Below are positions 12,678 to 43,894 of a stretch of 64,000 bases of DNA, one piece after another. The stretch is from Minisyncoccota bacterium (GTDB taxonomy: Bacteria; Patescibacteriota; Minisyncoccia; Phycocordibacterales; UBA6065): NCBI GenBank assembly GCA_041661645.1, contig JBAZUA010000002.1:19670-83669 (forward strand), given 5' to 3'. The notes beneath the pieces are model-generated. The model had not been told where the DNA came from. It made no database searches and was given only the letters and a program-made list of their open reading frames with translations. Within the stretch, counting starts at the first letter, position 1. Each line of letters opens with the position of its first letter. The position numbers and the translations under genes were made by a program.

Positions 12678-13145
12678 ATGGCAAAACAATGCGACCATAC
12701 GAGTGTCGGGGTATTTGTGCGGGACGGTGATAAATTGCTGCTCATAGAGCGGGCTCGACCGCCTTACGGCTTTGCCGTGCCGGCCGGCCATGTCGATGGC
12801 GACGCCACGTTCGAGATTGCGGCCGCGAGGGAACTCAAGGAGGAGGTCGGGCTTGATGCCGGTCCCATGAAACTCATCTTTGAGGGCAGGAAAAACAATC
12901 CCTGCAGGAGGGATGGCGGCACGTGGCACGAGTGGAGGCTTTATGACACCACCAGAGTCGGAGAGCTTAGGCGAAGCGAAGACGAGACGAAGCGGGCGAA
13001 TTGGTATGACAAAGACGAGATTAGGCTCTTGGCAGGAAAAACGGAGGCGCGTCTCGGGAGTAAGATATCAGATGAGGAATGGGATAAGAGTCCGGGACTT
13101 GAGCCGGTCATGTATGAATTTTTCAAGGAACTGAAGCTAATCTAA
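12678..13145 (+). CDS. NUDIX hydrolase.
   Basis: The Nudix box GHVDGDATFEIAAARELKEEVGL matches the GX5EX7REUXEEXGU consensus. Confidence 0.75.
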   Translation: MAKQCDHTSVGVFVRDGDKLLLIERARPPYGFAVPAGHVDGDATFEIAAARELKEEVGLDAGPMKLIFEGRKNNPCRRDGGTWHEWRLYDTTRVGELRRSEDETKRANWYDKDEIRLLAGKTEARLGSKISDEEWDKSPGLEPVMYEFFKELKLI

Positions 13146-13149
13146 CTCT

Positions 13150-13614
13150 ATGAAAATAACCCTGTGTGGCAGCATCGGATTTTACAAAGAAATGGAGTCT
13201 GCCCGGGACCAGCTCGCGGGGCTTGGGCACGAGGTGAAGATTCCCGAACTGGCCCTCGAGGTTCCCAGGGAATTCGGGGCAGGAAAGAAGGTGTATTTCG
13301 GCAAGTTCATCGAGGAGAACGGCGGCATTGACGCGTTTCCCGCTGGGCATGCCATATGGAATCTCAAAGAGGGGGCTATCAGGGATCACTATGAGAAGAT
13401 CGACTGGGCCGATGCCATCCTCGTCATCAATAACGAAAAGCGCGGAATCAGCGGGTATGTGGGAGGCAACACCCTCATCGAGATAGGCGTGGCTTTTTAC
13501 CTCAAAAAGAGGATTTTCATCCTGAATCAGGTATCTTCGGAGCTTTCCTACAAGCAGGAGGTCATGGGCATGAAGCCGACGTTTTTGGATGGCGATCTTT
13601 CGCTGATAAAATAG
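13150..13614 (+). CDS. Nucleoside 2-deoxyribosyltransferase-like Rossmann-fold protein.
   Basis: MKITLCGSIGFY...ADAILVINNEKRGISGYVGGNTLIEIGVAFYLKKRIFIL resembles the Nuc_deoxyrib_tr-like pattern (G.....E.G.A). It is paired with the upstream NUDIX gene by a 5-nt gap. Confidence 0.4.
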   Translation: MKITLCGSIGFYKEMESARDQLAGLGHEVKIPELALEVPREFGAGKKVYFGKFIEENGGIDAFPAGHAIWNLKEGAIRDHYEKIDWADAILVINNEKRGISGYVGGNTLIEIGVAFYLKKRIFILNQVSSELSYKQEVMGMKPTFLDGDLSLIK

Positions 13615-13717
13615 GCTGAGAAGGGGTTGAGGCCGATTTTCGGTTTTCTCGGATGGAGGTTCTCGAAAATAGGGATGTGCCTTTGCTTTGCGAGTTGGCG
13701 TTCTCGGGATAGAACCA
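13615..13717 (+). pseudogene. Degenerate 3' remnant of a large-serine-recombinase gene that ends in repeat A (ttggcgttctcgggatagaacca).
   Basis: Positions 13695-13717 are identical to 18717-18739, which are the last codons (LAFSG*) of the recombinase at 17406-18734. The about 80 nt upstream are weakly similar to that gene's 3' end. No intact ORF is present. Confidence 0.45.
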
Positions 13718-13764
13718 AACGGTGCTATAACCAGCAATGCTTCTATGACATTTAAAATCATACC

Positions 13765-13785
13765 AAATCGACCCGTCCTGAGCGA
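13765..13785 (+). repeat. att-like core repeat B, copy 1 (aaatcgacccgtcctgagcga).
   Basis: Identical 21-mer at 18787-18807. Degenerate copies occur at 19625-19643 (accgacctatcctaagcga), 14500-14516 and 36397-36413 (gacgggtcctgagcga). Copy 1 and the 18787 copy both lie about 50 nt downstream of repeat A. Confidence 0.55.
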
Positions 13786-13788
13786 TTG

Positions 13789-14169
13789 CTAGAAACAGAT
13801 CTGTACAAGTATTTCGGCAACACTGCCTAGAATCGCAATAACTAATGAGCTTATGGCAATATATTTTGCCCGATCACTACTTTTCTTAGCTTCTCTAAGT
13901 TCGATGTAGCTCACCAAAGTAGATGCACCTGAGCTTGTTACGAAATAAAGGTACTCACCATTACCAGTGTGATGTGTACCCAGGTGTGCGATTAGTGGCG
14001 GTTCTCCTTGGATTTCTCCCAGCATCATTCTTTTTATCCATATCCACTCATCTTCATTACTAGTGATAGCCTCCTTGAGTTCATTAATTTTGAATCCCAG
14101 GGAACCTCTGTCAAAAGCCCACTGAAGAGCACGAACATGGAGGGGTTCTTTTGAGTTATTTTTTGTCAC
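13789..14169 (-). CDS. Hypothetical protein with a C-terminal transmembrane helix (126 aa).
   Basis: The ORF has a GTG start in the track. It is adjacent to and co-oriented with 14178-14462. I recognise no motif. Confidence 0.35.
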   Translation of the reverse strand: MTKNNSKEPLHVRALQWAFDRGSLGFKINELKEAITSNEDEWIWIKRMMLGEIQGEPPLIAHLGTHHTGNGEYLYFVTSSGASTLVSYIELREAKKSSDRAKYIAISSLVIAILGSVAEILVQICF

Positions 14170-14177
14170 AAAACAAG

Positions 14178-14462
14178 TTATTCAAGAGTCTCTTCACAGA
14201 TGTATGGCTTTCCCTGGGACAAGTCACAGTTTTTGCCACACTCGTAGTCATAATCAGAGTCAGTTGGGTTGTGTTTCGAGACCTGTTCGCCAACCCAGCT
14301 TCTGCAGGCCTCTATTGAATCAAAGGTATATGAACTCTGAATATCATTTGAGAGATTGCTTGCGTCTGGATAATAAAAACCAACATACTCATCGCCCTTC
14401 AGTAAAGAGAATCCCGCCCAACCGACCAAGACTATTAATATCAGGGTTATTAAATCTTTCAT
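14178..14462 (-). CDS. Small secreted/membrane-anchored protein, hypothetical.
   Basis: ATG start with an N-terminal hydrophobic segment (LITLILIVLVGWAGF). It contains 4 Cys. Confidence 0.4.
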   Translation of the reverse strand: MKDLITLILIVLVGWAGFSLLKGDEYVGFYYPDASNLSNDIQSSYTFDSIEACRSWVGEQVSKHNPTDSDYDYECGKNCDLSQGKPYICEETLE

Positions 14463-14499
14463 GTTCCAATTGTATCACTTTCGACAACTCTGCTAAGGG

Positions 14500-14539
14500 G
14501 ACAGGTCCCGAGCGATATAAACTAAACTCAACTTGGTTG
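14500..14539 (+). repeat. 40-bp direct repeat matching the flank of tRNA-Gln. This is the distal boundary of the island.
   Basis: gacaggtcccgagcgatataaactaaactcaacttggttg differs at 2 of 40 positions from 36397-36436. The 36397-36436 copy includes the last 6 nt of the tRNA-Gln gene. The sequences diverge completely outside the 40 bp. Confidence 0.7.
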
Positions 14540-14543
14540 ACCC

Positions 14544-14563
14544 TCTGGGACGATGTTGGAACC
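14544..14563 (+). repeat. Direct repeat C, copy 1 (tctgggacgatgttggaacc).
   Basis: Identical 20-mer at 15666-15685. The pair brackets a 1.1-kb segment holding one gene and two hairpins. Confidence 0.5.
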
Positions 14564-14673
14564 TTTCTGCCTGAAAGCGGTAATTGACATATAGGAATAT
14601 GATGATATTGTACCGCCAGGCTAGAACCCTGAAAAAACTTCACACAAACCACACAAATACGGAGGATCATTCC

Positions 14674-15438
14674 ATGGAATACACTTCAAGTTGCGCTTTT
14701 GTAGCACAGGGCGATATCGTAGTCGGCATCTCGTTTGGATCAGAGCCCTGCAGCGAGCACGAAAATGGGCATGGTGGGCTAAGGGAGGCGTTCGGCATTC
14801 CCCAAGAGTTGACCCGGGAAGTCTGCGGGATCGATGCCCGAACGATTACCAGGAGCCATCCGAAACTTCGGCTGATCGAGGCAGGGAATGTCTCATACCT
14901 CCTGTGTCCGCCCAATGAGACGGTCTACAAGGACATCTCGAATGAGCACATCGACCACATGGTTGGCTTTCTTCCTGGAAAAGGAGTTTCCGGCGCGTGG
15001 GACGACAGCTCTTTCGCGATTCGAATCGCTGGCGAGCATGCCCCATTCCTGAGACGCCTGCACGAGGCTTTTGAGGCAAAGGACATCGTCATCTTCCAGT
15101 CCGGCAAGGGCTTTTGCATGCCAGGCCTCTATTTAATTCTGAGGTCTGCCATGCCGAAGGAAAGCATTGAGGGTTTCGCTTCCGCCGATACCTCGCGCCT
15201 GAACCTGGCCGACGCCGTGGACGCATCGGGAATCAAGGAGCGCCTCAAGGCGGCCGGGAAAAAGTATCTCGCGCTCTCGCCTCGGTGGAGAGATGAAGGG
15301 AATGGTCTCTTCCTTCTCTGGCTCAATCCCTGGCACCAGGATGACGATAACTGCGGCTGGTTCACGGTCAGCGACCTCGATGACTGGATTCTCGGAAAGG
15401 GCCGCATTCCCAAGATGAAAGTCTGCTCAACGAGCTAA
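14674..15438 (+). CDS. Hypothetical protein (254 aa).
   Basis: An internal ATG preceded by a GGAGGA Shine-Dalgarno sequence. The track ORF at 14584 starts further upstream. I recognise no motif. Repeat C flanks it. Confidence 0.5.
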   Translation: MEYTSSCAFVAQGDIVVGISFGSEPCSEHENGHGGLREAFGIPQELTREVCGIDARTITRSHPKLRLIEAGNVSYLLCPPNETVYKDISNEHIDHMVGFLPGKGVSGAWDDSSFAIRIAGEHAPFLRRLHEAFEAKDIVIFQSGKGFCMPGLYLILRSAMPKESIEGFASADTSRLNLADAVDASGIKERLKAAGKKYLALSPRWRDEGNGLFLLWLNPWHQDDDNCGWFTVSDLDDWILGKGRIPKMKVCSTS

Positions 15439-15445
15439 ACGTTCT

Positions 15446-15481
15446 CACACCCACAGGTTTCGACCTGTGGGTGTTTTTTTG
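15446..15481 (+). terminator. Rho-independent terminator.
   Basis: acacccacagg-tttcga-cctgtgggtgt followed by a T7 run. Confidence 0.7.
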
Positions 15482-15609
15482 CCACCCTTTCCATCGACCC
15501 TTACAGGGTCAGTACGGGTTTCCCATTTCTTCGGAATTGGAATTCCTCAGAAATATGGGAGAACCCTTTCGATTCCAAGACGCGGGTCCATTGGACCCGC
15601 TTCCGTGAG

Positions 15610-15659
15610 ACAAACAAAAGAAAGGCCCCGTCATGCGACGGGGCCTTTCTTTTGTTTGT
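15610..15659. repeat. Perfect 23-bp-arm palindrome (acaaacaaaagaaaggccccgtc-atgc-gacggggcctttcttttgtttgt).
   Basis: Read directly. It is unusually long for a terminator and ends 7 nt before repeat C copy 2. Confidence 0.6.
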
Positions 15660-15665
15660 TGGCCG

Positions 15666-15685
15666 TCTGGGACGATGTTGGAACC
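15666..15685 (+). repeat. Direct repeat C, copy 2.
   Basis: Identical to 14544-14563. Confidence 0.5.
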
Positions 15686-15888
15686 CTGATTACCAGATAC
15701 CCTCTAGACGCTAAAAACAGATAAACTATTGACTTATTTAGAATCGTATATCCGTCTGAAAAATCTAAGTTCTAAAATATGCCTTTATAGAGCCATATAA
15801 TGGTAAAGTACATAGACGATCGTAACTTTATCTTGATTTAGACGCTTAAAAGTGCTATTCTGTAGGTACTAATAATCATTTAAACACC

Positions 15889-16428
15889 ATGTCCACAAAG
15901 AAATTCCTCGATCTGTATGAGTTCATAGACCGAGCGGTCAGAAGCAGGAAGTACCCCGAAAGCACAGCGCAGGGGCTTAGGGCGGCCCTTAAACTTTTTG
16001 AAGCCGAGCTGAATGAAGATGAAACGGCTTCTCTGGATGTGTTCAGGCAGAACATTGAACAAATTTATCAGAGCGTTGCCACCAATAACGGTAAACAGTA
16101 TAGCGCAGGATCACTCGCCACCTATAAATCTCGAATAGTAAAGGTGCTCGGCGACTATGAGAAGTATGGCATCGATCCGACCAAGATGGCAAGTTGGTCT
16201 CCAAAACTCATAACTCGAAGCCCGAAGAAGCAGGAGGAAAAAGTTTCTTCGGGAGAGAGCTCTGATCCGCAAGATGATGTGCCGTCTGTATCAGCTCAGG
16301 TGGGTATGCATAAGATTGAACTCGCCCTCCGACCAGATAAGAAGTTCGTTATTATCATCCCTCGAGATATAACTGTCGATGAGGCGAAGATAGTAAAGTC
16401 GGTTCTTGATTCTTTGACGAAAGAGTAA
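15889..16428 (+). CDS. Hypothetical protein (179 aa).
   Basis: ATG start after an AT-rich promoter-like region. A 10-bp-stem hairpin follows at about 16447-16473. I recognise no motif. Confidence 0.45.
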   Translation: MSTKKFLDLYEFIDRAVRSRKYPESTAQGLRAALKLFEAELNEDETASLDVFRQNIEQIYQSVATNNGKQYSAGSLATYKSRIVKVLGDYEKYGIDPTKMASWSPKLITRSPKKQEEKVSSGESSDPQDDVPSVSAQVGMHKIELALRPDKKFVIIIPRDITVDEAKIVKSVLDSLTKE

Positions 16429-16914
16429 GTCTTTGAGCATAAAGAACTGCCGTCTAATTTCTTAGACGGCAGCCCTGGGTGCTCAATACACCCCTGCAGA
16501 TTATTCACGATGGAAAGCGAGTGAAGCCTCAACGTAAGGTCGCCTCGCATCCCATGACCTTTCGGCTAAACCAGTATAGCCAAAAGGCTAATTCAGTCAA
16601 AGTTTAATGTATTCATACACAGTTAGAATTGAAATGCACAGCAACGTATTTCTGAACTTCTCACTTCTTCACATCAAGATGGCGGGTGAGGGTTTCAGCA
16701 GAACGATCGTGGCGGATAATGCTGTTGAGTACCATCTTCCGAGGGCGACTTATGTCATCCGTGGGACCCATCTTTCTTTGTCTCAGGTCCTAGAGGCTGC
16801 AACACGCGCCTTGGCGGGCACAGGACAGACGGGTGAGGTGCTCGTCAGTCAGACAAGTACTTGGAGGTGGAGTGGTCTTGCTCCAGTTAAGCGGTAACTT
16901 AAACGAATAAAAAA

Positions 16915-16953
16915 CTCCGTCGTGGCCCCTGGAAGCCACGACGGAGTTTTTTT
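16915..16953. terminator. Bidirectional intrinsic terminator.
   Basis: ctccgtcgtggc-ccctggaa-gccacgacggag with a 5' A-run and a 3' T7 run. Confidence 0.7.
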
Positions 16954-16964
16954 GCTGCCTTGAT

Positions 16965-17297
16965 TTACTTAATCTGGTTTCTAAGTTTTGCACCATTAAC
17001 TATTTCACTAATTGCTCTGGCGATTTCTTCAACACGTGTCTCGATAAGTTGGTTTGAAAATCTTTTAGTTAAGATATCATCACCATCAGAGTAGTGGTCA
17101 CGTTTTAGATCTGCGAGGATTTGCTTTGAATCGATATAGTGCTGTATTCCATCAATCTCAATAAATAGTTTTGCATCTGGGATGTATAAATCAACATGCT
17201 TATGTCCATCCCAGTACTCTGTCTTGACCTCAACACCTCTTTTCCTTAGCGCCTCCGCCAGTGCAATAGTCTGTTTTGTTGGTACGATAATTGGCAT
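16965..17297 (-). CDS. DUF559-like endonuclease-fold protein (Vsr/MutH-like restriction-endonuclease-like fold).
   Basis: YWDGHKHVDLYIPDAKLFIEIDGIQHY fits the DUF559 core (D...EVDG..H). The gene is AT-rich. Confidence 0.5.
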   Translation of the reverse strand: MPIIVPTKQTIALAEALRKRGVEVKTEYWDGHKHVDLYIPDAKLFIEIDGIQHYIDSKQILADLKRDHYSDGDDILTKRFSNQLIETRVEEIARAISEIVNGAKLRNQIK

Positions 17298-17405
17298 GGG
17301 ATACTAATTTGTATGCTACACTATAGTATGTAGAACCATGGTTAGCAACTGGCTACACTTTCGGTGTGGCTATAAACAAGCAAATACTCGTCCACTTCGG
17401 AAAGC

Positions 17406-18734
17406 GTGTCGGCAAAGGCTGTCGGTAGGCCAGTGTTCAACGAGCTTGTGAAGATGATTGTCTTGGGAAAGGCCGATGCGATTCTCTGTTGGAAGCTCGA
17501 TAGACTTGCGAGGAACTTCATTGACGGAGGACTTGTGATCGATTCTCTACAAAGGTCTGTCATTAAAGAAATAAGAACCTACGAATCAATACATCTTCCA
17601 AGCGATAACGTCCTCATGCTTGCCGTTCAACTTGGAATGGCGAATCAGTACATCAGGGATTTGAGCGTGAACGTGAAGAGAGGGAATCGAGAGAAGCTTT
17701 CCCGTGGCGGTTGGCCGAATCACGCCCCGTTCGGGTACTTGAATAACAAAGCGGACAAAACCATCGTCATCGACCCAATTAGGGCAAAGTACGTCCTGCG
17801 TACCTACGAGCTGTATCTATCGGGTACTCATGGCCTGAGAGATATTGAGAAAATTCTTTACGAAGAAGGGTTGCGGTCTAAGTCAGGAAAGCGAGTGCTC
17901 ATAAACCAGATTCACAGGATTCTATCCAGTCCCTTCTACACGGGCCTCATGGTCAGGGACGGAAAGTATTACGAGGGAAAGCACGAGCCAATTATCTCCA
18001 AGGAGACTTTCGACCGAGCGCAGGACATCCTGAACGACAAGGCCCGCCCAAAATCCAAGACTCTCTTCTTTCCGCTTCGTGGCTTCCTCAGATGCGGGAA
18101 TTGCGGTTGCGCCCTCACGTCCTCGCTCAAGAAGGGTCATCACTATTATTACTGCACCAACGGCAAGAAAATCTGCACCGAGCACAAGACATATCTCAGG
18201 GAGGTTAAGCTTTATTCCGTTCTGTCAGAGATATTCGGACATCTCGATTTTACCGAGCGAAAGATAGAGCTCATGTATCAGTCGGCGAAGGAAAGAACGG
18301 GCATCGATAGCACGTATTCGGAAAGGATAATAGACGGTCTTCAAACGAGCCTAGAATCGCTCAAGCCGAAGGAATCTAGGATACTCGACACTTTCCTCGC
18401 AGAACAGATTTCAAAAGAGCTGTACGACCAGAAAAGCCTCGCAATGCAGAACGAGCGAATCGCCCTGACGAAGCAGTTGAAAGAGGCCCAGTCGAAACAA
18501 ACTGCCGTAGCTTTGGAACCCATCAAGGAAGTCTTTTTAACGGCCAGCAGAGCCAAGAAAGAGTTTTTGGATGGAGATGACGCCAAAAAACACACGATTC
18601 TCAAAAACCTACTTTGGAACCTTTCCATCAAAGACAAAAAGGTGGCTTCGTTGAAGCTTAAAGATGTGTTTGAGGTTATGAGGAAAGCACCGAAAACCGA
18701 CGATATTTCTACTCTGTTGGCGTTCTCGGGATAG
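17406..18734 (+). pseudogene. 5'-truncated large serine recombinase. The catalytic Ser region is missing. The recombinase domain, zinc ribbon and coiled-coil are retained.
   Basis: It aligns with the intact paralog at 32653-33924 from GRPVFNELV / QRPVFKQLL onward. An in-frame TAA lies 11 codons upstream, so the roughly 85 N-terminal residues including the YARxS nucleophile are absent. The track start is a GTG. The C-terminus runs into repeat A and repeat B. Confidence 0.6.
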
Positions 18735-18786
18735 AACCAGACTGTGCCAATCAGGGCAAGGTGGTTCGGTCGTCGGTCACTCCATC

Positions 18787-18807
18787 AAATCGACCCGTCC
18801 TGAGCGA
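18787..18807 (+). repeat. att-like core repeat B, copy 2.
   Basis: Identical to 13765-13785. It lies 52 nt after the recombinase stop codon. Confidence 0.55.
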
Positions 18808-18812
18808 CCTGT

Positions 18813-19205
18813 TTATAGCTTGGAAACTAGTTCTTTAAGTTTCGCCGACGATTCGCGGGCAAGGAACTCCTCCTTAGTAAGCCATTCGAACTGGTCATGT
18901 TCATAGCTTAGGACTACGTTCGTGGAAACTGCATAAGCTTTGTATCCTATGCCGATCCAATATTCCTTCTTCTTGTTATATGAGCCTATTGCGTCAACAA
19001 GCTGTAGATCTTTGACCTCGATACCGACCTCTTCTTGTATTTCTCTCAACATGCTCACTTTTAGGTCTTCGCCTTCCTCAACTTCTCCACCTGGGAGGTC
19101 CCATGTAAGAGGCCTGCTTGGATCAGTCGCCGAGCGGCGTATGGCCAAAATCTTTCCTTCCTTATTCAGGATCGCTGTCTTTTGAGAGGCGTTGATGTTG
19201 GTCAT
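18813..19205 (-). CDS. NUDIX hydrolase.
   Basis: Nudix box GGEVEEGEDLKVSMLREIQEEVGI. Confidence 0.75.
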   Translation of the reverse strand: MTNINASQKTAILNKEGKILAIRRSATDPSRPLTWDLPGGEVEEGEDLKVSMLREIQEEVGIEVKDLQLVDAIGSYNKKKEYWIGIGYKAYAVSTNVVLSYEHDQFEWLTKEEFLARESSAKLKELVSKL

Positions 19206-19218: not shown

Positions 19219-19608
19219 TTAAGCCTTCAAGCTACCATCAAGAAAAGCTTTCAAGCCGATAAGATCCTTTTTCCCGTGATCGTAGAAATAGGTATTGATT
19301 CCCGCAGATCGAGCACTCTCTACCGCCTCTATGCTGTGCTCAAAGTAAACGACATCATTCTTGCTCAACTTGAAATGGCCGAGCATCAGCTCGAAGTACT
19401 TTGGATCGGTCTTCATGGGATTGCGTCTGAGGGTGAAGACTTCAAATGGCACCTTGTTCAATCCGAACTGCTCGAATTTATCATCGGGTGCGTTTGTGAG
19501 GATTATCTTTGTGTTGGGATACGAATCGAGCAGTACGCGCATCTCCTCGAAGATTTTTCCCTGATCTGAAACAAAGCAATCTACCGCGTCTACTAATATG
19601 GTTTTCAT
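19219..19608 (-). CDS. HAD-superfamily hydrolase-like small protein.
   Basis: The C-terminal FEHSIEAVESARSAGI resembles the HAD-IA motif FEDSxxGxxAAxAAG. The N-terminal ILVDAVDCF is a degenerate motif I. Confidence 0.4.
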   Translation of the reverse strand: MKTILVDAVDCFVSDQGKIFEEMRVLLDSYPNTKIILTNAPDDKFEQFGLNKVPFEVFTLRRNPMKTDPKYFELMLGHFKLSKNDVVYFEHSIEAVESARSAGINTYFYDHGKKDLIGLKAFLDGSLKA

Positions 19609-19624
19609 TAATTCAGTATACCAA

Positions 19625-19643
19625 ACCGACCTATCCTAAGCGA
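19625..19643 (+). repeat. att-like core repeat B, degenerate copy (accgacctatcctaagcga).
   Basis: It shares 15 of 19 positions with copy 1 and the upstream ataccaaa context. With the 18787 copy it brackets the NUDIX+HAD pair. Confidence 0.4.
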
Positions 19644-36396: not shown

Positions 36397-36436
36397 GACG
36401 GGTCCTGAGCGATATAAACTAAACTCAACTTGGTTG
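36397..36436 (+). repeat. 40-bp direct repeat, tRNA-proximal copy. It covers the tRNA-Gln 3' end (6 nt) plus 34 nt of downstream flank.
   Basis: gacgggtcctgagcgatataaactaaactcaacttggttg matches 14500-14539 at 38 of 40 positions. Confidence 0.7.
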
Positions 36437-36504
36437 CCAGACTTGGAATCGAACCAAAATTTTCGCTTTCAGAGAGCGACGTCCTACCGTTAGACGATCT
36501 GGCA
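36431..36504 (-). tRNA. tRNA-Gln (anticodon CUG), 74 nt with encoded CCA.
   Basis: Folded by hand from the reverse complement. The acceptor stem TGCCAGA/TCTGGCA gives U1:A72, as in bacterial tRNA-Gln. The D-arm is GTCT...GGAC. The anticodon stem is TCGCT/AGCGA with loop CTCTGAA, so the anticodon is CTG. The T-arm is TTTGG-TTCGATT-CCAAG. The discriminator is A and CCA follows. Confidence 0.8.
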
Positions 36505-37235: not shown

Positions 37236-37633
37236 ATAAAGCCAATCCCATAAGCAGGGAAGATTTCGAGAATCTGGTGGCCCAGGCCTTTGACCGTCTG
37301 CCCGAATGGGTGCGCCAGAAGGTACAGAACGTCGCCGTCATCGCCGAGGACGTGGTGGACGAGGAGACGATGCTCGATATGGGCCTGGAATCGAACATGG
37401 ACCTGCTCGGCCTCTATCGCGGCGTGCCCCTGACCGAGCGAAACTACGAGGCGGGCCTGGTTTTTCCCGACGTCATCTTTCTATACAAGCTTCCCATAGA
37501 GGAAGAGGCTGTCGAAAGCGACCTGTCGGTGCGTGACGTCGTCTACGAGACTCTTTGGCACGAGATCGCCCATCACTTCGGCCTCGACGAGGACGCGGTG
37601 CAGAAAAGGGAAGGGGAGGAGTTCAGGGTATAG
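37232..37633 (+). CDS. Zincin-like metallopeptidase family protein (DUF1025-like).
   Basis: C-terminal HExxH in LWHEIAHHFGL. The size and acidic N-terminus fit DUF1025. It overlaps the previous gene by 4 nt. Confidence 0.5.
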   Translation: MNKANPISREDFENLVAQAFDRLPEWVRQKVQNVAVIAEDVVDEETMLDMGLESNMDLLGLYRGVPLTERNYEAGLVFPDVIFLYKLPIEEEAVESDLSVRDVVYETLWHEIAHHFGLDEDAVQKREGEEFRV

Positions 37634-37634
37634 G

Positions 37635-37892
37635 CTATTCGTAGAGCTCGCTGTGCGTGCCTATCGCGACGAAAATGGTGATTCCACCATCGGTTCTGTA
37701 GATGGCTCGAATGTCTCCAGTCACGTTGATGCTCCTGTGATGTGACCACTCCGCGTGAAGTTCATGATTCTCGAGCGTCGGGTCAAAGGGATTCTTCGAG
37801 AACGCGTCGAATCTCTTTATGAAAGCCATCTGGACCTTTTTGTCCATCCTCGAATACCGCTTGATGAAGCTTTTGTGCAGTATGGACGGCAT
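37635..37892 (-). CDS. Type II toxin, RelE/ParE (YafQ-like) family.
   Basis: The 85-aa protein ends with GDIRAIYRTDGGITIFVAIGTHSELY, which is the RelE/ParE C-terminal signature. Confidence 0.6.
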   Translation of the reverse strand: MPSILHKSFIKRYSRMDKKVQMAFIKRFDAFSKNPFDPTLENHELHAEWSHHRSINVTGDIRAIYRTDGGITIFVAIGTHSELYE

Positions 37893-37901
37893 GTGCTGTT
37901 T

Positions 37902-38180
37902 CTAGGCTATTTTCCTCAAGTACGCGTCCATATCCTTCGCGTTCGCGAAGACGGGTGATAGGTTTTTGCCTGCCTTTATGTCCTTCTCTGCGCGGCGCAG
38001 GAGGGCGGCGGTCTTCTTGTTAGGGACGAGAGGCTCTCGGAAGGTTATCTGACGTTCGTCGATGAACTGACGCAGGTAGTTGTTCACCACGGTGCTCATG
38101 GAGAGTCCGAGATTCGTCGCCACGTCACGCGCGGTGTCCTTGAGCGTCTTCTCGATCTTTATGTTCAAAACGGTTTTCAT
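37902..38180 (-). CDS. Antitoxin, RelB/DinJ-like ribbon-helix-helix protein.
   Basis: It lies directly upstream of the RelE-like toxin on the same strand. LNIKIEKTLKDTARDVATNLGLSMSTVVNNYLRQ fits a DinJ N-terminus. The internal ATG is preferred over the track start. Confidence 0.5.
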   Translation of the reverse strand: MKTVLNIKIEKTLKDTARDVATNLGLSMSTVVNNYLRQFIDERQITFREPLVPNKKTAALLRRAEKDIKAGKNLSPVFANAKDMDAYLRKIA

Positions 38181-38390
38181 ATAACCAAAGTATATACAAC
38201 GGTTAATGTTTGTCAAACATATCCTTTCCTTGTTTTTTATCTATAAACATGGTGATATATGGAGCAGAAAAGTCCGCCTCAACTTTGCTCGTATTCATCC
38301 AGCATCGACCCCACGCCAGAACCGCGGGGCCTTGCGGGGCACAGACGCCCTATGAATACGCCATTGAGGCATTGAAAGGAAACCAGATAG

Positions 38391-39134
38391 ATGAAAAGAA
38401 ACAAAAGTGATCCGTGGCGGGATTCGTTCAAACCTAAAAATCGCCTTGCCGACGTGCGCCAGGTCATGGGCCCTCGGGCCGAAGAGCTGATCGCATTGTA
38501 TAATCAGACGCACAAAAGCGTCGACTCCGCCCTCGAGGATATGGATCGGGCCGAGACCTTCCTCCATTCGCGGGGCATCCGCCTGTATCGTCTCTTTGAC
38601 GATCTGAGTCCCGCGCTCGTGATGCTCATGATGGCTATTCTCATCGCCGACCTGTTTGGCGATGGCTCGGAGGGCTGGGCTGTTCTCTGGACGGGGTATC
38701 CGTTCGTATTAATGTTCTGTGGCTTTGCCTGGCTTTTATACAGGCTCCACATCAGCGTCAACAAGCGCATTGAAGATGCCGACTACACGTTCAATTGCTG
38801 CGACCTAACCATCCGGCGGTTGGTCAACGCTTTGTGGATCATGAGCGGATGCGAGCATTTCGCCGGCAACGATTCGATTCGGGACGATTTCGCCTCGAAC
38901 ATGAGGAAGATCTGCCTGGACATCGTCGAGATTCAGAACGTGACTCCTATCACGTGGCTGAACGGCAAGAGGGTTCGCCCGAAGGCCGAGATGGATCTGC
39001 GGGGCACGATGAACACCCTCGTCTCTGGTGGTGAATTCTTCGGTCTGACGGACGGAAATCTGAGGCCATACTTCAAACAGGCCCAGAGGGATTGGAGGAA
39101 CCTCGCGCACATTAACGCCGTGAGGACCGAGTAG
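38391..39134 (+). CDS. Hypothetical membrane protein (247 aa).
   Basis: ATG start and two central transmembrane helices. I recognise no motif. Confidence 0.45.
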   Translation: MKRNKSDPWRDSFKPKNRLADVRQVMGPRAEELIALYNQTHKSVDSALEDMDRAETFLHSRGIRLYRLFDDLSPALVMLMMAILIADLFGDGSEGWAVLWTGYPFVLMFCGFAWLLYRLHISVNKRIEDADYTFNCCDLTIRRLVNALWIMSGCEHFAGNDSIRDDFASNMRKICLDIVEIQNVTPITWLNGKRVRPKAEMDLRGTMNTLVSGGEFFGLTDGNLRPYFKQAQRDWRNLAHINAVRTE

Positions 39135-39261
39135 GAAATCTGACCTCAAATTGTTCGTTCTTTAAGATTGCGAGCCCGCCGATTCCATCGGCGGGCTTTT
39201 TGTTTCCTTGTATGGGCTTTATGCCGCGTTCCAAACATGCCCATGATACAATCACCCTTAC

Positions 39262-40971
39262 ATGACCCAGGCCCAGGCACTCGAAATACTCAAGACGGGG
39301 AGGAACGTCTTCGTCACCGGCCCGGCCGGATCGGGAAAGACGCATCTCCTCAACTCGTACATAAAATACCTGCGCGACAACCTGATCGACACGGGCATCA
39401 CCGCCTCGACGGGAATCGCGGCCACCCACATGGGCGGCATGACCATACACTCGTGGGCGGGCATCGGCATCGCCGCGTCGCTCACCCAGCACGACCTCGA
39501 GGGCATGTTCGAGAAGTCCTATCTCTCCAGGCGCTTCGAGAAGGTGAAGGTGCTCATCATCGACGAGGTGTCCATGCTTCATCACTTCCGCTTTGACCTG
39601 GTGAACAAGGTCCTCCAGAACATGAAGGGGAACGTGAGGCCCTTTGGCGGGGTGCAGGTCGTCTTGTGCGGCGACTTCTTCCAGCTGCCGCCCGTGTCGC
39701 GTCCCGGCGAGCCCGAATCGCTCTTCATATACAAGTCAGACTCGTGGGCCGAGGCCAAGTTCACGGTCTGCTATCTCTCCGAGCAGTTCCGCCAGAAGGA
39801 CGATGACGACGTGCTTTCCATATTGAACGAGATACGTCGTGGCGACGTCACCGACACCGCCCGTGAGTATCTGCAATCGCGCTTCAACGCCAAGATTGAT
39901 TTGGCCGTCGAGCCGACGCGCCTCTTTACCCATAATGCCGACGTGGACACGCTCAATCAGAAGGAACTCGAGAAGCTCAAGAGCGATGAGGAGGTGGAGT
40001 ATTTCATGGAGACCCATGGGCGCGAGGCGCTCGCCGAAACTCTGAAAAAGTCGTGCCTCGCGCCCGAGATGCTCCGTCTCAAGGTCGGTGCCCGCGTCAT
40101 GTGCGTCAAGAACAACTTCGAGGAGGGCTATGTGAACGGGACTTTGGGCATCGTCATATCGTGCAAGGAGAATCAGGATCCCTCCATTCGCACGGCCACG
40201 GGGAAGGTCATAAAGATAGAGAGGGCGAGCTGGAAGATCGAGGAGGACGGCAAGGTGAAGGCCGAAATTCTTCAGTACCCCCTGCGTCTCGCCTGGGCCA
40301 TCACCGTGCACAAGAGTCAGGGCATGTCCCTCGACGCCGTCGAGGTGGATCTCTCAAAATCCTTTGCCCCTGGCATGGGATATGTGGCGCTCTCCCGCGT
40401 TCGTTCGCTCGACGGCCTCACCATACTCGGCATGAACGAGACGGCTTTGCAGGTGCACGGCGAGGTGCTCGAGTTCGACGCCGACCTGCAGCAGCTTTCT
40501 GACGAGGCGCAGTCTGATCTGGAAGAGATGACGGCGGCGGCACTCAAGGACGCGCACGATTTATTTCTAAAGGGAGCGCGTCCCGCCCCAAAGGAGCACA
40601 AGCCTTCGACCTTCGAGGAAACCCTCGCTCTGATCGAGGAGAAGAAGGGCCTTGGCGAAATGTCCGCTGAGCGCGGCGTTACAGGCGAGACCATAGTCGC
40701 CCATATCGAGAAGCTCATCGAGGAGGGCATCTGTCCCGACATCAAATATCTCAAAAAGGAAATAAGCCTAGCCCATTGGAAGAAGATAGAAAAGGCCTTC
40801 GAGGAGGAGCTTGCCAAGATGGAGTCCGCGGGGCAGGTGAGCGAGGACGGTTTACCTCTTTCGCCGATACTCTTGTCTCCAATAAAGAGCCGGGCGGGGG
40901 CAAGCGTCTCGTTCCTCAGCATAAGGCTGGCCCGCGTTATCTTGGGATACTATTTGGCTCCCAAGGCCTAG
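39262..40971 (+). CDS. PIF1/RecD-like SF1 DNA helicase with a C-terminal HTH domain.
   Basis: Walker A GPAGSGKTHLL, Walker B LIIDEVSM, CGDFFQLPPV, and the SF1B motifs VHKSQGMSLD and ALSRVRSLDGL. Confidence 0.8.
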   Translation: MTQAQALEILKTGRNVFVTGPAGSGKTHLLNSYIKYLRDNLIDTGITASTGIAATHMGGMTIHSWAGIGIAASLTQHDLEGMFEKSYLSRRFEKVKVLIIDEVSMLHHFRFDLVNKVLQNMKGNVRPFGGVQVVLCGDFFQLPPVSRPGEPESLFIYKSDSWAEAKFTVCYLSEQFRQKDDDDVLSILNEIRRGDVTDTAREYLQSRFNAKIDLAVEPTRLFTHNADVDTLNQKELEKLKSDEEVEYFMETHGREALAETLKKSCLAPEMLRLKVGARVMCVKNNFEEGYVNGTLGIVISCKENQDPSIRTATGKVIKIERASWKIEEDGKVKAEILQYPLRLAWAITVHKSQGMSLDAVEVDLSKSFAPGMGYVALSRVRSLDGLTILGMNETALQVHGEVLEFDADLQQLSDEAQSDLEEMTAAALKDAHDLFLKGARPAPKEHKPSTFEETLALIEEKKGLGEMSAERGVTGETIVAHIEKLIEEGICPDIKYLKKEISLAHWKKIEKAFEEELAKMESAGQVSEDGLPLSPILLSPIKSRAGASVSFLSIRLARVILGYYLAPKA

Positions 40972-40996
40972 CATTGACTTTCAGGTGAGGGGGAGT

Positions 40997-41512
40997 ATGG
41001 TGACGACAGTGTCCTTCGCCATTCCGGTGCAGGACAACGTTCATCACATGGTCTCACAAAAGGTAAGGGATGAGTTTGGGTTGATAAAGACTGAGTTTTA
41101 TATGTTTCTTTCCGGCAAATACCCCCGCTCCGTCACGCTCTCAGACAAAAGGTTTCCCGAGAGGCAGCCTTCCGAAGAGCTAATTGGGCCCGCGACCGAT
41201 CACCTCAGAATTCTCGCGGATCTCGTCAATCGCACCATGCTCCTTCGTAAGCAGATGCCTCTCAGAAAGATGGAGTTGCCGATCGGTTATGAGTATGAAT
41301 ACAGGATGACCTCTCACATGCTCGACGTCCTGCATCCTCTCGCTCAGCTCCTGATGCGTAACTGTTCAGTGGGGGTTCACGTACCCGAGTCAGGCATTTT
41401 CGAGGCCCGCTTCGCCCTGCGGAGGGGTTGGCAGATTGTCTTTGCTCGGGGCATTAACAGCGATGCGGCGGTCTTTGATATGTTGGGCAGGAAGGATAGG
41501 TTTTCACGCTGA
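40997..41512 (+). CDS. Hypothetical protein, paralogous to 41654-42157.
   Basis: It shares a RRGWQIVFARG / RRGWQVVYSNRG block with the next gene. A hairpin with a T-run terminator follows at about 41524-41552. The track start is a GTG and the internal ATG is used here. Confidence 0.4.
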   Translation: MVTTVSFAIPVQDNVHHMVSQKVRDEFGLIKTEFYMFLSGKYPRSVTLSDKRFPERQPSEELIGPATDHLRILADLVNRTMLLRKQMPLRKMELPIGYEYEYRMTSHMLDVLHPLAQLLMRNCSVGVHVPESGIFEARFALRRGWQIVFARGINSDAAVFDMLGRKDRFSR

Positions 41513-41653
41513 TAGGTTTGGAGGGGGGCCACGAGACCCCTCTTTTTCTTGCCTGAAATGCCGCGTTGACTTTCACACAAGATTACGTAGAGTGTCTTCA
41601 GAGTTTAGGCCATTCCGGCTTGGACAAGGCAAACCCCGTTCTTACTCACTTAT

Positions 41654-42157
41654 ATGGCCACAAGTTTTTGGTCAGAAATCGGCTTCATCCTCGCGACGCG
41701 GAATCCCCGTGACGCATCGGATTGCATGCTCGAGATACTCGATCCCTCCAAGGATCATTTCGTCGGCATCTGCGGTCCCCGGATCAGGGTGCTCTGCGGT
41801 CAGGTCAGTGCGCTCAATCAGGAGCTGAAGGATTGCTTCGATGCGATCCCGAGCGGCGAGGTCGACATGGAGTCTCTCCCTTGGCGCAAGGCGTGCGGGC
41901 ACGCCTTCATCACCCAGAAGAAGATCGAGGCCATCAAGGCAATCATCCACATCGCCCTTCACGAGGATTTTCCCGAGCTTCTCGCCATGAACTTCGTCGG
42001 TGTCCGTCGAGGGTGGCAGGTCGTCTACTCCAACAGGGGGAAGGACATCCTGCGGGGTCCTGATCATACCGACATTGCGAGCTGTCTCTTCTACAAGGAG
42101 CTCGTCGCGGCGGACAAGTCCGCCCAGCGTCACCAGCAACAGCTCTCGGGCCGATGA
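41654..42157 (+). CDS. Hypothetical protein, paralog of 40997-41512.
   Basis: ATG start. It shares C-terminal motifs with the preceding gene. Confidence 0.4.
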   Translation: MATSFWSEIGFILATRNPRDASDCMLEILDPSKDHFVGICGPRIRVLCGQVSALNQELKDCFDAIPSGEVDMESLPWRKACGHAFITQKKIEAIKAIIHIALHEDFPELLAMNFVGVRRGWQVVYSNRGKDILRGPDHTDIASCLFYKELVAADKSAQRHQQQLSGR

Positions 42158-42217
42158 TGGGCGCATTCAAGGCCGCACTACGGGGTGCGGCTTTTTTCTT
42201 GCCCATGTTCGTCGTGC

Positions 42218-42631
42218 CTAGAGCTTGGTCTTGGTGATCCGATGCGAGTCCTTGCTGTGGAATCGACCATAGGGGGTCTTAAAGAAGTATCCGTAGGTGT
42301 CCGAGTCGTCCAGGTGAAGGTCTATGGAATGCTCCTTGCAGTATTCGGCCTTGGTCTTGTCCCAGAGATAGGGGTCGAGATGGGGGTCGCCCTTCTCGTC
42401 CCACCTGAGCGCCGTACCTGCCTTGATGTGATGGTCGGTTATGGAGAAGAGGTGGGTGAAAGATATGCCAAGCTCCCGTATCCGCGCCATCTCTGCCTCA
42501 GACTTCGCTCCCGTTATGATGTGTACTTCATGTCCGTTGTCCACGAGGAGCTTGGTGAGGGTCTTGAAGAAATCGGGCCTGGTGTCCACGACCCCGTGAA
42601 GGTCGAGGCCTATTTTGATGCGCTGATTCAT
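42218..42631 (-). CDS. HAD-superfamily hydrolase-like protein, a possible nucleotidase.
   Basis: The N-terminal IGLDLHGVVD is HAD-motif-I-like. A small alpha/beta protein of 137 aa. Confidence 0.35.
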   Translation of the reverse strand: MNQRIKIGLDLHGVVDTRPDFFKTLTKLLVDNGHEVHIITGAKSEAEMARIRELGISFTHLFSITDHHIKAGTALRWDEKGDPHLDPYLWDKTKAEYCKEHSIDLHLDDSDTYGYFFKTPYGRFHSKDSHRITKTKL

Positions 42632-42730
42632 TGATGTTTGCTTTGTTGTGTGTATTTCAAAAGCATACCATGCTCTTGACTTTTTGTGTATTTATTGTAG
42701 CTTTTATTACGAAACACCATCTATAAAACC

Positions 42731-43894
42731 ATGATCATTGTATACGCATTGCAAGAAGCACCAAAAAGTTACGGCAAGTCCATATTTCTTGCCGGTCCGA
42801 CGCCGCGGGACAAGGATGTTCCTTCGTGGCGCCCTGAAGCCATCAGGCTCCTCGAGGAGCTTGGTTTTGACGGCGTGGTCTTTGTTCCCGAGGCTGGAGA
42901 CAGCACGTGGAAGCGGGATTATACCGATCAGGTCGAATGGGAAGAGAAGTATCTCAACTCTGCTGACATCACCCTGTTCTGGGTCCCTCGCGAGATGCAG
43001 ACGATGCCCGCCCTCACCACTAACGTGGAATGGGGGATGTGGTATGACAGCGGAAAGGCGGTTCTCGGTCATCCTGAGGGCGCCCAACATGTCCGGTATC
43101 TCTCGTATTACGGTCAAAAGGAGGCGGCCCCTTGTGAGACCGACCTCAGGGAGGCTCTTCGTCGGGCGGTTGAAATTATCGGCGACGGCGCCGTGCGCAC
43201 GGGTAGCGAGACCTTGGTCCCGCTCATTCTGTGGAAGACGGCCTCGTTTCAGGGTTGGTATCGTCGGACTGTTTCCGATGCCGGCAATCGACTCGACGGC
43301 TTTCGCGTCAAGGTCATTTGTCGGGCGGGTCCCCAGAAGAAGTTTGTCTTTCTCTGGGTGGCGCACGTCAACATCTGGGTCGAGGCAGAGGGTCGGAACA
43401 AGTCGAACGAGATCATACTCGCCCGTCCCGACATCTGCTCACTTGTCCTCTTTCGGCGGGGCGTCACGCTCCTTGATACCGAGGTTGTCTTGGTTCGCGA
43501 GTTCCGCAGCACCGTCAACAATTCAAAGGGATTCGTTCTCGAGTTGCCCGGAGGCTCATCGTGGAAGTCGGGCCAAGAGCCGAGCGTCGTCATGTGCGAC
43601 GAGTGCAGGGAGGAGACGGGCATCGAGATTTCACCCGAGCGCGCCCATATCGTCGGGGACCGCCAGCTTCTCGCCACGTTCTCGGTTCACCGGGCGCTTG
43701 TCGGGGCCGTCGAGCTCACCGAGGCCGAGATGAGAGATGCTCGGTTGAGGGTCGGAAGCGTTCGTGCCGAAAGTCATGAGACTGGCGAGCGGGTCTACCT
43801 TGAGGTTAAGACCATCAGGGACCTTCTCGGCATCAGCGGGCAGCAGATGGACTGGTCGAATCTCGGGATGATTATGGCGGCCATTCAGGGTTGA
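42731..43894 (+). CDS. Fusion protein of an N-terminal nucleoside 2-deoxyribosyltransferase-like domain and a C-terminal NUDIX hydrolase.
   Basis: N-terminal SIFLAGPTPRD...ADITLFWVP...NVEWGMW is an Ndt-like Rossmann pattern. The C-terminal Nudix box is GGSSWKSGQEPSVVMCDECREETGIEI. Confidence 0.55.
   Translation: MIIVYALQEAPKSYGKSIFLAGPTPRDKDVPSWRPEAIRLLEELGFDGVVFVPEAGDSTWKRDYTDQVEWEEKYLNSADITLFWVPREMQTMPALTTNVEWGMWYDSGKAVLGHPEGAQHVRYLSYYGQKEAAPCETDLREALRRAVEIIGDGAVRTGSETLVPLILWKTASFQGWYRRTVSDAGNRLDGFRVKVICRAGPQKKFVFLWVAHVNIWVEAEGRNKSNEIILARPDICSLVLFRRGVTLLDTEVVLVREFRSTVNNSKGFVLELPGGSSWKSGQEPSVVMCDECREETGIEISPERAHIVGDRQLLATFSVHRALVGAVELTEAEMRDARLRVGSVRAESHETGERVYLEVKTIRDLLGISGQQMDWSNLGMIMAAIQG

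Follow-up and report, generated by a model that had tools for sequence, protein, structure and literature searches.

We observed that the window (the whole 64-kb stretch of DNA analysed, from a Candidatus Paceibacterota MAG of the candidate phyla radiation, CPR) carries two unrelated gene sets that both draw on three enzyme classes: NUDIX, Ndt-like and HAD-like. NUDIX enzymes cut pyrophosphate bonds, Ndt-like enzymes act on the base-sugar bond by cutting or exchanging it, and HAD-like enzymes cut phosphoesters. The first-pass annotation had placed six such ORFs at three loci, and every one of them was found:

12678-13145, plus strand: A1, a MutT-like NUDIX hydrolase of 155 aa with the Nudix box RELKEEVGL (PF00293, E=7.9e-19)
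13150-13614, plus strand: A2, an Ndt-superfamily protein of 154 aa, after a 4-nt gap from A1
18813-19205, minus strand: B1, a MutT-like NUDIX hydrolase of 130 aa with the Nudix box REIQEEVGI (PF00293, E=2.4e-18)
19219-19608, minus strand: B2, a cap-less HAD-IA-like protein of 129 aa (TIGR01509, HAD_2), with a 13-nt gap to B1
42218-42631, minus strand: C1, 137 aa, whose motifs follow a HAD-like pattern (DxHGV ... T ... K ... DD) and which matched no curated family
42731-43894, plus strand: C2, a 387-aa Ndt2-NUDIX fusion (PF15891; predicted structure and Foldseek)

The three NUDIX and two Ndt-like assignments held, while the two HAD-like calls were weak. B2 was marginal (TIGR01509 at 28.8 bits against a cut-off of 29.4; HAD_2 at E=0.002), and its N-terminal motif, VDAVDCF, is non-canonical. 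The canonical DxDx(T/V) motif is missing from both B2 and C1, so neither need be a phosphatase. We consider it reasonably likely that locus 3 recycles NAD breakdown products and that loci 1 and 2 serve in nucleotide clean-up or salvage, with substrates and reaction steps that we infer. The two functions that had been offered as alternatives are thus divided, NAD/ADP-ribose salvage suiting locus 3 and house-cleaning suiting loci 1 and 2.

The original proposal was that one Ndt-NUDIX-HAD module, mobile or duplicated, recurs at three places with the same job at each. The three classes do recur, B1-B2 is flanked by repeat cores, and arrays such as that in L088 (A2-paralogue, A1, A2, HAD) indicate that the classes travel together. 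However, the loci are not copies of one another. In pairwise BLASTP, the likeness among the NUDIX domains was confined to the Nudix box (28-33% over ~53 aa), and neither the A2/C2 nor the B2/C1 comparison gave anything significant. The NUDIX subfamilies are unlike (A1 and B1 are MutT-like, C2 is of the ADPRase type), the Ndt domains of A2 and C2 belong to different families, and the genomic partners of the two are wholly different. Two of the three places are, in addition, a single locus split by an insertion. The single-module proposal is thus largely refuted and very unlikely. Of the two observations that were to speak against a functional link, unrelated subfamilies and an absence of conserved linkage, we found only the first, as conserved linkage exists despite the unrelated subfamilies.

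The insertion was evident from the repeats around it. Places 1 and 2, which had been treated as separate, form one convergent cluster (NUDIX>Ndt-like> <NUDIX<HAD-like) that is interrupted by a repeat-bounded insertion of 5,022 bp. The direct repeats 13694-13725/18716-18747 match at 30 of 32 positions and 13764-13785/18786-18807 at 22 of 22; both pairs are spaced by an identical 5,022 nt and occur nowhere else in the window. The 32-nt block is a duplicate of the 3' end of the recombinase gene. The features of this region are as follows:

13694-13785, unstranded: composite direct repeat bounding the insertion, left copy (32-nt block and 22-nt core)
13786-18715, unstranded: body of the insertion between A2 and B1, from repeat spacing, composition and Pfam
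16965-17297, minus strand: DUF559 gene inside the insertion (Pfam)
17406-18734, plus strand: large serine recombinase, truncated (Resolvase profile matched only from position 43)
18716-18807, unstranded: right copy of the composite direct repeat bounding the insertion
19622-19643, unstranded: third, degenerate match to the 22-nt repeat core (18/22), just past B2

The body is of low GC (0.40-0.50), and its cargo consists of hypothetical genes, the DUF559 gene and the serine recombinase. The latter is missing ~40-60 residues at its N-terminus, among them the catalytic-serine region, and stop codons lie just upstream; judged from its sequence, it is probably inactive. A search for a contig with the unoccupied site found none. 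The repeats and their spacing show that A1 > A2 > < B1 < B2 is one ancestral convergent cluster, into which an element inserted between A2 and B1. The repeat core reported beyond B2 was confirmed as the degenerate third copy, but B1-B2 is not a mobile cassette as had been suggested: the element adjoins the pair rather than containing it, and a search of viral contigs found no close relatives of B1 or B2.

We further examined the family of A2 in related genomes. A2 is ~80% identical among many Patescibacteria, where it is a single-copy chromosomal gene beside housekeeping genes. Its invariant motifs are CGS and GGNTLxE (with E111), it has a poorly predicted insert of ~35 residues at positions 30-67, and it reached no family threshold in Pfam. 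In 32 of 74 related loci a NUDIX gene on the same strand directly adjoins a member of the A2 family, with either gene order; A1 orthologues are found directly beside A2 in related loci, and at one locus (L134) A2 and A1 are fused in frame. Other recurrent neighbours were YjjX/NTPase_I-T (5 loci), Maf (4), HIT (3) and inorganic pyrophosphatase (2), and in some genomes Maf or YjjX genes replace the NUDIX gene beside A2. The closest solved structures to A1 were an 8-oxo-dGTPase domain and NUDX1, and those to B1 were the MutT-related protein 3grn (E=7e-14) and NudG. L088 has the order A2-paralogue, A1, A2, B2-like (the B2 homologue, E=2e-46, directly following A1-A2) and L141 has the order A2, NUDIX, B1-like.

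Could such clustering arise by chance? CPR genomes hold many small NUDIX and HAD genes, some of which would lie adjacent without functional coupling, and three catalytic Nudix boxes do occur within this 64-kb window. Nevertheless, by chance a NUDIX gene would be the immediate neighbour of A2 in only an estimated few percent of loci, against the 32 of 74 observed. Both Ndt-NUDIX pairs have fusions, the C1 domain has Rosetta-stone fusions, and an operator motif is enriched around the NAD genes (below). Chance is extremely improbable as a general explanation and already refuted for A1-A2, C2 and C1; for B1-B2 alone it is possible. The adjacency of A1 and A2 and the fusion in C2 are linkage beyond chance, and the functional link that had been argued from pairing and fusion was upheld.

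DNPH1/Rcl and the CMP N-glycosidases MilB and BcmB form the nucleotide-hydrolysing branch of the nucleoside 2-deoxyribosyltransferase superfamily; A2 differs from these in its insert and in reaching no Pfam threshold. In set 1, a MutT-type NUDIX enzyme would turn non-canonical or surplus (d)NTPs into (d)NMPs, from which A2 would strip the base to leave (deoxy)ribose 5-phosphate, like DNPH1, MilB and BcmB. B1 and B2 would act as additional hydrolases in the clean-up. A1 and B1 are MutT-like, in line with the house-cleaning NTP pyrophosphatases (MutT-type NUDIX, Maf, YjjX), but to our knowledge the classical bacterial house-cleaning set has no counterpart of an Ndt-like constant partner such as A2.

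The third locus has the layout C1 <> C2, followed by pncB-nadD-nadE-nrtR on the opposite strand. C1 had been described as followed by C2; the two genes instead lie on opposite strands and diverge from a 99-nt gap. The neighbouring features are:

44013-45350, minus strand: pncB, nicotinate phosphoribosyltransferase (PF17767, PF04095), convergent with C2
45376-45972, minus strand: nadD-like nucleotidyltransferase (PF01467)
45984-47954, minus strand: nadE, glutamine-dependent NAD synthetase (PF00795, PF02540)
47961-48623, minus strand: nrtR, NUDIX-related regulator of NAD metabolism (PF00293, PF21906, PF19368), the first gene of the operon and the fourth NUDIX domain in the window
48632-48652, unstranded: candidate NrtR operator 2, upstream of nrtR, with 2 mismatches
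48687-48707, unstranded: candidate NrtR operator 1, upstream of nrtR, with perfect palindrome arms, TTAGTGTTTTTAGTACACTAA

The predicted NrtR box is TAGTGT-N9-ACACTA. It was matched 38 times in 80 related loci, mostly upstream of NAD genes, compared with 3.2 +/- 1.7 times in shuffles.

C2 itself has two halves. Residues 1-~150 form an Ndt2-like domain (PF15891 Nuc_deoxyri_tr2 at residues 16-116, E=3.9e-15) with an invariant E100 in TTNxEWG and a match to 4mcj. The NUDIX match was below threshold by sequence (E=0.05); in the predicted structure (pLDDT 89.8), ~200 columns align with ADP-ribose/NDP-sugar pyrophosphatases (Foldseek E~1e-10), and residues ~170-387 form the complete NUDIX fold of that type, with E291, E294, E295 and G297 invariant and a Nudix box lacking the conserved Arg. 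The fusion is a conserved family, with >2,000 full-length homologues at ~50% identity, and it gave 576 hits in genomes and 213 in viral contigs.

NAD genes lie within 5 kb of the C2 family at 23 of 80 genome loci (20 labelled CPR, and 3 in low-GC bins otherwise labelled), and at these 23 the fusion lies inside nadE-nrtR-pncA-pncB-nadD clusters. In CPR NAD operons its place is often just before pncA-pncB, as in L026 (NadE>NrtR>rSAM>C2>PncA>PncB>NadA>NadD) and L034 (NadE>NrtR>ARH>C2>PncA>PncB). An ADP-ribosylglycohydrolase is present in 5 of these clusters and adjoins C2 in 3. Predicted NrtR operators lie 19-34 nt upstream of C2 in L024, L032 and L039; in this window no NrtR box was found before C2, which is convergent with pncB and outside the operon. 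These results show that in many CPR genomes the C2 family sits inside an NAD salvage operon under NrtR control, as judged by predicted operators. Only about half of the CPR C2 loci are linked to NAD genes, and none of the 28 loci from Myxococcota, Actinomycetota and cyanobacteria had NAD neighbours.

C2 would accordingly dismantle NAD breakdown products: its NUDIX half would produce mononucleotides from ADP-ribose (or NAD), and its Ndt half would free nicotinamide from NMN (or NAD), supplying PncA, PncB, NadD and NadE, with ribose 5-phosphate passing to Prs. Alternatively, the family may act in deoxynucleotide metabolism, the Ndt half as a deoxyribosyltransferase or dNMP N-glycosidase and the NUDIX half as a dNTP/dNDP pyrophosphatase, its position in CPR NAD operons being secondary. 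PF15891 and 4mcj are annotated as deoxyribosyltransferase-like, and the NAD context is absent outside CPR. The gene most often found directly beside C2 in viral contigs encodes a dNMP kinase (12 loci, median 26 nt away), which fits deoxynucleotide metabolism as well as NAD, and thymidylate synthase and dCMP deaminase lie nearby. We nevertheless hold this alternative to be unlikely, since structurally the NUDIX half belongs with the NDP-sugar/ADPRase class and not with the MutT class, C2 lies between nrtR and pncA-pncB with predicted operators directly upstream, and NrtR (11 loci) and microbial PARG (7 loci) are among the neighbours of its relatives even in viral contigs.

Among the closest known systems are the ADP-ribose pyrophosphatases and NDP-sugar hydrolases (E. 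coli NudF/ADPRase and YffH/NudK, human NUDT5). Residues ~170-387 of C2 have the complete fold of these enzymes, N-terminal beta domain included (target TM 0.6-0.72, identity 13-16%), with invariant REUXEE glutamates; C2 differs in its Nudix-box Arg, which is not conserved, and in its fusion to Ndt2. Its N-terminal half falls in PF15891 and not in PF05014 as compared with DNPH1, MilB and BcmB, and neither DNPH1 nor MilB carries a NUDIX fusion. The Ndt fold has structural relatives in CD38/ADP-ribosyl cyclase and the TIR NADases, which act on the nicotinamide-ribose bond by cleavage or exchange; the C2 N-terminal half and A2 have no sequence relationship to them, and by analogy the resemblance may serve as a lead to substrates, not as evidence of membership. 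NadM-Nudix and NrtR are precedents for the recruitment of ADPRase-like NUDIX domains into NAD metabolism, with ADP-ribose as a common currency of the NrtR regulon (PMC2330246). C2 likewise has an ADPRase-like NUDIX domain, probably recruited into NAD metabolism, with genes in the predicted NrtR regulon, but its partner is an Ndt-like glycosidase/transferase rather than an adenylyltransferase or winged-helix domain. A reading of the main text of the 2008 regulon reconstruction found no mention of a deoxyribosyltransferase-like gene, and from that text C2 could not be matched to the uncharacterised nrtX or nrtY (PMC2330246).

We also evaluated whether these proteins might be conflict enzymes, that is, phage or mobile-element cargo that destroys NAD-derived or nucleotide immune signals or depletes NAD, rather than housekeeping salvage enzymes. 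B1 matches the PADLOC candidate PDC-S07 (E=1.7e-17); A2, C1 and C2 match no defence-system model. That C2 shares operons under NrtR with NAD biosynthesis genes on CPR chromosomes, that A2 has a conserved chromosomal setting and that no close viral relatives of B1 or B2 were found all make this quite unlikely.

The probable role of C1 is that of a phosphatase whose substrate is an NAD-related nucleotide. Its family has 1,059 cluster representatives, and D10, H12, K94, D108 and D109 are invariant in the alignment. Elsewhere the C1 domain occurs in fusions with NadD-like, NUDIX+NrtR_WHD and Macro+NADAR domains, and a homologue lies within the NAD cluster in L164 and L007; another, at 68% identity, was found away from NAD genes. 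C1 also matches phrog_13623, and at 16 of 79 viral-contig loci its domain lies right next to a NUDIX gene.

The window belongs to a Candidatus Paceibacterota (CPR/Patescibacteria) MAG. All six open reading frames named in the first-pass annotation were found at the coordinates it gave:

12678-13145, plus strand: A1, NUDIX gene
13150-13614, plus strand: A2, Ndt-like gene (Ndt, nucleoside 2-deoxyribosyltransferase)
18813-19205, minus strand: B1, NUDIX gene
19219-19608, minus strand: B2, HAD-like gene
42218-42631, minus strand: C1, HAD-like gene
42731-43894, plus strand: C2, Ndt2+NUDIX fusion gene

C1 and C2, which had been placed in tandem, are in fact divergent. Among the domain calls, NUDIX was unambiguous for A1 and B1, and the Ndt2+NUDIX architecture held for C2, but the HAD calls for B2 and C1 were the weakest.

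The annotation had viewed these genes as one module recurring in three places, and had argued for a functional link from the repeated pairing and the fusion. In pairwise BLASTP and in profile-against-profile comparison with hhalign, similarity between A2 and the Ndt2 domain of C2, and between B2 and C1, was undetectable, and the Nudix box was the sole likeness among the NUDIX domains of A1, B1 and C2. These comparisons speak strongly against paralogous copies of one module. The copies fall in unrelated subfamilies, but their linkage in other genomes is conserved. We conclude that there are two functionally distinct gene sets for nucleotide-cutting enzymes, each with genuine conserved linkage: A1, A2, B1 and B2 (set 1), and C1 with C2 (set 2). 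The earlier observation was partly confirmed, and its interpretation partly supported.

The first two places appear from the sequence to be one locus, split by an insertion between A2 and B1. Two repeat blocks, both absent from the rest of the window, recur at the same spacing of 5,022 nt: 13694-13725 matches 18716-18747 (30/32 identical), and 13764-13785 matches 18786-18807 (22/22 identical). The segment between the repeats is low in GC:

5,022-bp segment within 13694-18807: large serine recombinase, DUF559 endonuclease-like gene, five hypothetical genes

With this segment taken out, ~180 nt would separate A1 and A2 (plus strand) from B1 and B2 (minus strand), and the four genes would form a convergent cluster. 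The recombinase is without the catalytic-serine region. The 3' end of its gene is part of the repeat and is duplicated in the left repeat copy, which suggests that the segment may be a decayed or tandemly integrated element. An empty-site contig without the 5-kb insertion was sought and not found; the two other contigs with B1 both have the recombinase too. The annotation had reported repeat cores on both sides of B1-B2, and a degenerate third core does lie just past B2. A scan of the related loci did not find the repeat cores there. We also observed a tRNA-Gln(CTG) gene (36431-36504, minus strand) where the low-GC mosaic region (~22-36 kb) has its far end; it could mark a limit of the larger island named in the annotation.

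Both A1 and B1 carry the Nudix box GX5EX7REUXEEXGU (as RELKEEVGL and REIQEEVGI), and among solved structures MutT-type enzymes are closest to both. A2 scored 16.3 bits against PF05014, below the curated cut-off of 28.8. Its family, which has no Pfam domain, is ~80% identical among many Patescibacteria, and its profile gave no significant match to PDB sequences. E111 of A2 is invariant in 30 sequences and, on the basis of motifs, is a candidate equivalent of the NDT nucleophile. B2 scored 28.8 bits against TIGR01509 (just under the cut-off of 29.4). Its motif I, VDAVDCF, departs from the HAD pattern DxDx(T/V), keeping the candidate nucleophile Asp and missing Asp+2.

The link between A1 and A2 is real. 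A NUDIX gene was the direct same-strand neighbour of the A2 family in 32 of 74 metagenomic loci, usually an A1 orthologue, which could stand on either side; in nine loci the neighbour was a NUDIX gene of a second type. In one locus (L134) A2 and A1 are fused in frame, and in another (L141) the order is A2, NUDIX, B1-type NUDIX. A tight same-strand array at L088:185-1940 holds a distant 129-aa A2 paralogue, an A1-type NUDIX, A2 and a B2-type HAD; the paralogue reveals a second, divergent Ndt-like family in Paceibacterota. Where the A2 family lacked a NUDIX neighbour, the adjacent gene was often a house-cleaning enzyme (YjjX/NTPase_I-T, Maf, HIT or inorganic pyrophosphatase). The neighbours of the A2 family fit a putative gene set for nucleotide clean-up or salvage: an NTP pyrophosphatase would yield an NMP, and the Ndt-like protein would then take the base off.

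Using PADLOC, we found that B1 matched the phage-defence candidate PDC-S07 (E=1.7e-17), and A1 did so weakly. The B1 match may be generic MutT-like similarity only, and the PADLOC models gave nothing besides this generic NUDIX candidate. In viral contigs, B1 and B2 had only distant Nudix-box or partial matches.

We further examined C2. Residues 16-116 match PF15891 (Nuc_deoxyri_tr2; E=3.9e-15, 56.5 bits, cut-off 30). The flavodoxin-like Ndt fold of the nucleoside 2-deoxyribosyltransferase superfamily was also observed. E100 (in TTNxEWG) is invariant in 35 sequences and aligns with a Glu of 4mcj; going by motifs, it is a candidate counterpart of the NDT nucleophile. The C-terminal NUDIX part was sub-threshold by sequence. 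A confident structural model (pLDDT 89.8) aligned in Foldseek with E. coli ADPRase, YffH/NudK, Klebsiella ADPRase and human NUDT5 (E~1e-10, 200-220 columns, target TM 0.6-0.72), and the family profile matched ADPRases, NUDT5 and NudK. Because of these matches, residues ~170-387 are assigned a complete ADP-ribose/NDP-sugar pyrophosphatase fold, with the two parts found in NudF, YffH and NUDT5, an N-terminal beta domain and a Nudix domain. In the Nudix box (DECREETGI) Glu and Gly are invariant in the family and the Arg position is variable; glutamates E291, E294 and E295 are invariant in the 35-sequence alignment.

The C2 fusion represents a large conserved family (>2,000 proteins at ~50% identity, almost all of full length; 576 confirmed genome hits), found in many Patescibacteria lineages as well as in Myxococcota, Actinomycetota and cyanobacteria. 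No description of it was found in the literature, and the 2008 paper on the NrtR regulon does not use 'deoxyribosyl' in its main text.

In the window, 119 nt separate C2 from pncB-nadD-nadE-nrtR, so that it clusters with genes of the NrtR regulon (NrtR being the ADP-ribose-responsive regulator of NAD genes). NAD genes lay within 5 kb of C2 in 23 of the best 80 loci (of the 576 hits), usually in one co-directional cluster; 20 of these were CPR-labelled and three were low-GC bins with other labels. Prs and ADP-ribosylglycohydrolase recur in these clusters.

Gene order in NAD clusters with C2 (arrowheads, direction)
L026: NadK< NadE> NrtR> rSAM> C2> PncA> PncB> NadA> NadD>
L034: NadE> NrtR> ARH> C2> PncA> PncB>
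L038, L064: NadE> NrtR> rSAM> PncA> PncB> C2> NadA> NadD>

A 297-aa radical-SAM protein stands on the same strand beside C2 in eight loci (L003, L021, L025, L026, L038, L050, L053, L064), often within the NAD cluster (for example, L050:181-1074).

No NAD context was found in 28 non-CPR C2 loci, and the neighbours of C2 relatives in Streptomyces, Actinomadura, Glycomyces and Enhygromyxa included no NAD genes and had no common context. C2 is therefore not equated with nrtX or nrtY, as far as the 2008 NrtR paper's main text describes them. NARP3, which consists of PnuC and NadR, is unrelated. In a single case, Actinomadura scrupuli (L065:9335-11755), the genes that come after the C2 relative are a bacterial nitric oxide synthase oxygenase and an amidinotransferase/DDAH-like gene.

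Upstream of nrtR in the window lies the palindrome TTAGTGT-N7-ACACTAA (48687-48707), and another copy lies at 48632-48652. The palindrome occurred 38 times in C2 loci against 3.2 +/- 1.7 in shuffles (~12-fold), in many CPR loci (L004-L082) and mostly upstream of NAD genes (nadE, nrtR, pncA, pncB) and of C2 itself. Three loci (L024, L032, L039) have it 19-34 nt ahead of C2, and in two others (L007, L011) it precedes an nrtR-C2 operon. In the window C2 and pncB are convergent, and a scan found no NrtR box upstream of C2 there. We propose wTAGTGT-N7-ACACTAw, a predicted motif, as a candidate NrtR operator of Patescibacteria.

We favour a role for locus 3 in recycling NAD breakdown products, which the frequent order C2, PncA, PncB and the ADP-ribose-sensing regulator fit. 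ADP-ribose or NAD would be hydrolysed by the ADPRase half of C2. The Ndt half would act on NMN or NAD, freeing nicotinamide for PncA and PncB, and ribose 5-phosphate would pass to Prs. Alternatively, the substrate of the glycosidase could be AMP, or the Ndt half could carry out NADase or base-exchange chemistry of the kind known from CD38 (PMC11903787).

C2 also had 213 relatives in viral contigs (IMG/VR), often of 100-600 kb. The viral loci L251-L330 hold full-length relatives, except that L323-L329 (seven hits) and L330 have the Ndt2 half alone. The neighbours were dNMP kinase (12 loci), NrtR (11), TROVE/Ro60 (-vWA) (10) and microbial PARG (7). The dNMP-kinase context in phages suggests an alternative role of C2 in deoxynucleotide metabolism.

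C1 had 85 viral-contig relatives. Of 79 such loci, 16 had a NUDIX gene close by (median distance 20 nt), 15 had a NUDIX gene of a second type and 24 had a canonical small HAD. These C1 and C2 contexts indicate that the pairing of NUDIX genes with HAD-like and Ndt-like genes is found more widely than in the window.

C1 itself has DLHGV in place of HAD motif I, DxDx(T/V). The family keeps the candidate nucleophile Asp and has an invariant His at the Asp+2 general-acid position (DxHGV; D10 and H12 invariant in 36 sequences), together with the conserved pattern T40 ... K94 ... D108 D109. From these motifs, C1 and B2 may have altered chemistry. C1 gave no match to curated families or, as a profile against PDB sequences, to solved structures, and a fused homologue matched PF12710 weakly (E=0.004). 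Elsewhere the domain is found in fusions with NadD-like nucleotidyltransferases, with NUDIX+NrtR_WHD (the make-up of NrtR) and with Macro+NADAR. A homologue 70% identical to C1 lies between prs and nadD (L164), and the NAD cluster of L007 includes another; a further homologue (68% identical) lies away from NAD genes. Judged by these fusions and neighbours, C1 appears tied to NAD.

CPR bacteria are missing most nucleotide and cofactor biosynthesis and depend on salvaged parts. Because they live by salvage, NAD recycling is central to their biology. A joint reading, which we hold only tentatively and consider rather improbable as a whole, would make C2 a bifunctional recycler of NAD breakdown products whose Ndt2 domain is an NMN nucleosidase. 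Ndt2 and the ADPRase would close a cycle from NMN through nicotinamide and nicotinate to NAD in CPR bacteria, with the fused ADPRase taking away the NrtR effector ADP-ribose. In large phages the enzyme would serve to manipulate NAD pools, and the C1 family (DxH invariant) would be one more NAD-nucleotide phosphatase that has gone unrecognised. The gene for NMN nucleosidase (NMN glycohydrolase, EC 3.2.2.14) was 'not yet identified' in 2005 (PMC1249556); if Ndt2 does free nicotinamide from NMN, a gene would be assigned to an activity long without one. What the C2 family does is relevant outside CPR too, since its members also occur in Myxococcota and Actinomycetota and on many large phage contigs. 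Three uncharacterised families (the Ndt2-ADPRase fusion, the DxH HAD-like proteins and the A2 Ndt-like proteins) are hereby put into specific putative pathways, with NMN, NAD, ADP-ribose and non-canonical (d)NMPs as testable substrates.

Upstream of the C1/C2 locus we also observed a YafQ-like toxin/RelB-like antitoxin pair (~37635-38216) and a Pif1-family helicase that carries an HTH_40 domain at its C terminus (39262-40971), their coordinates being converted from gene calls on a contig identical to the window (L001).
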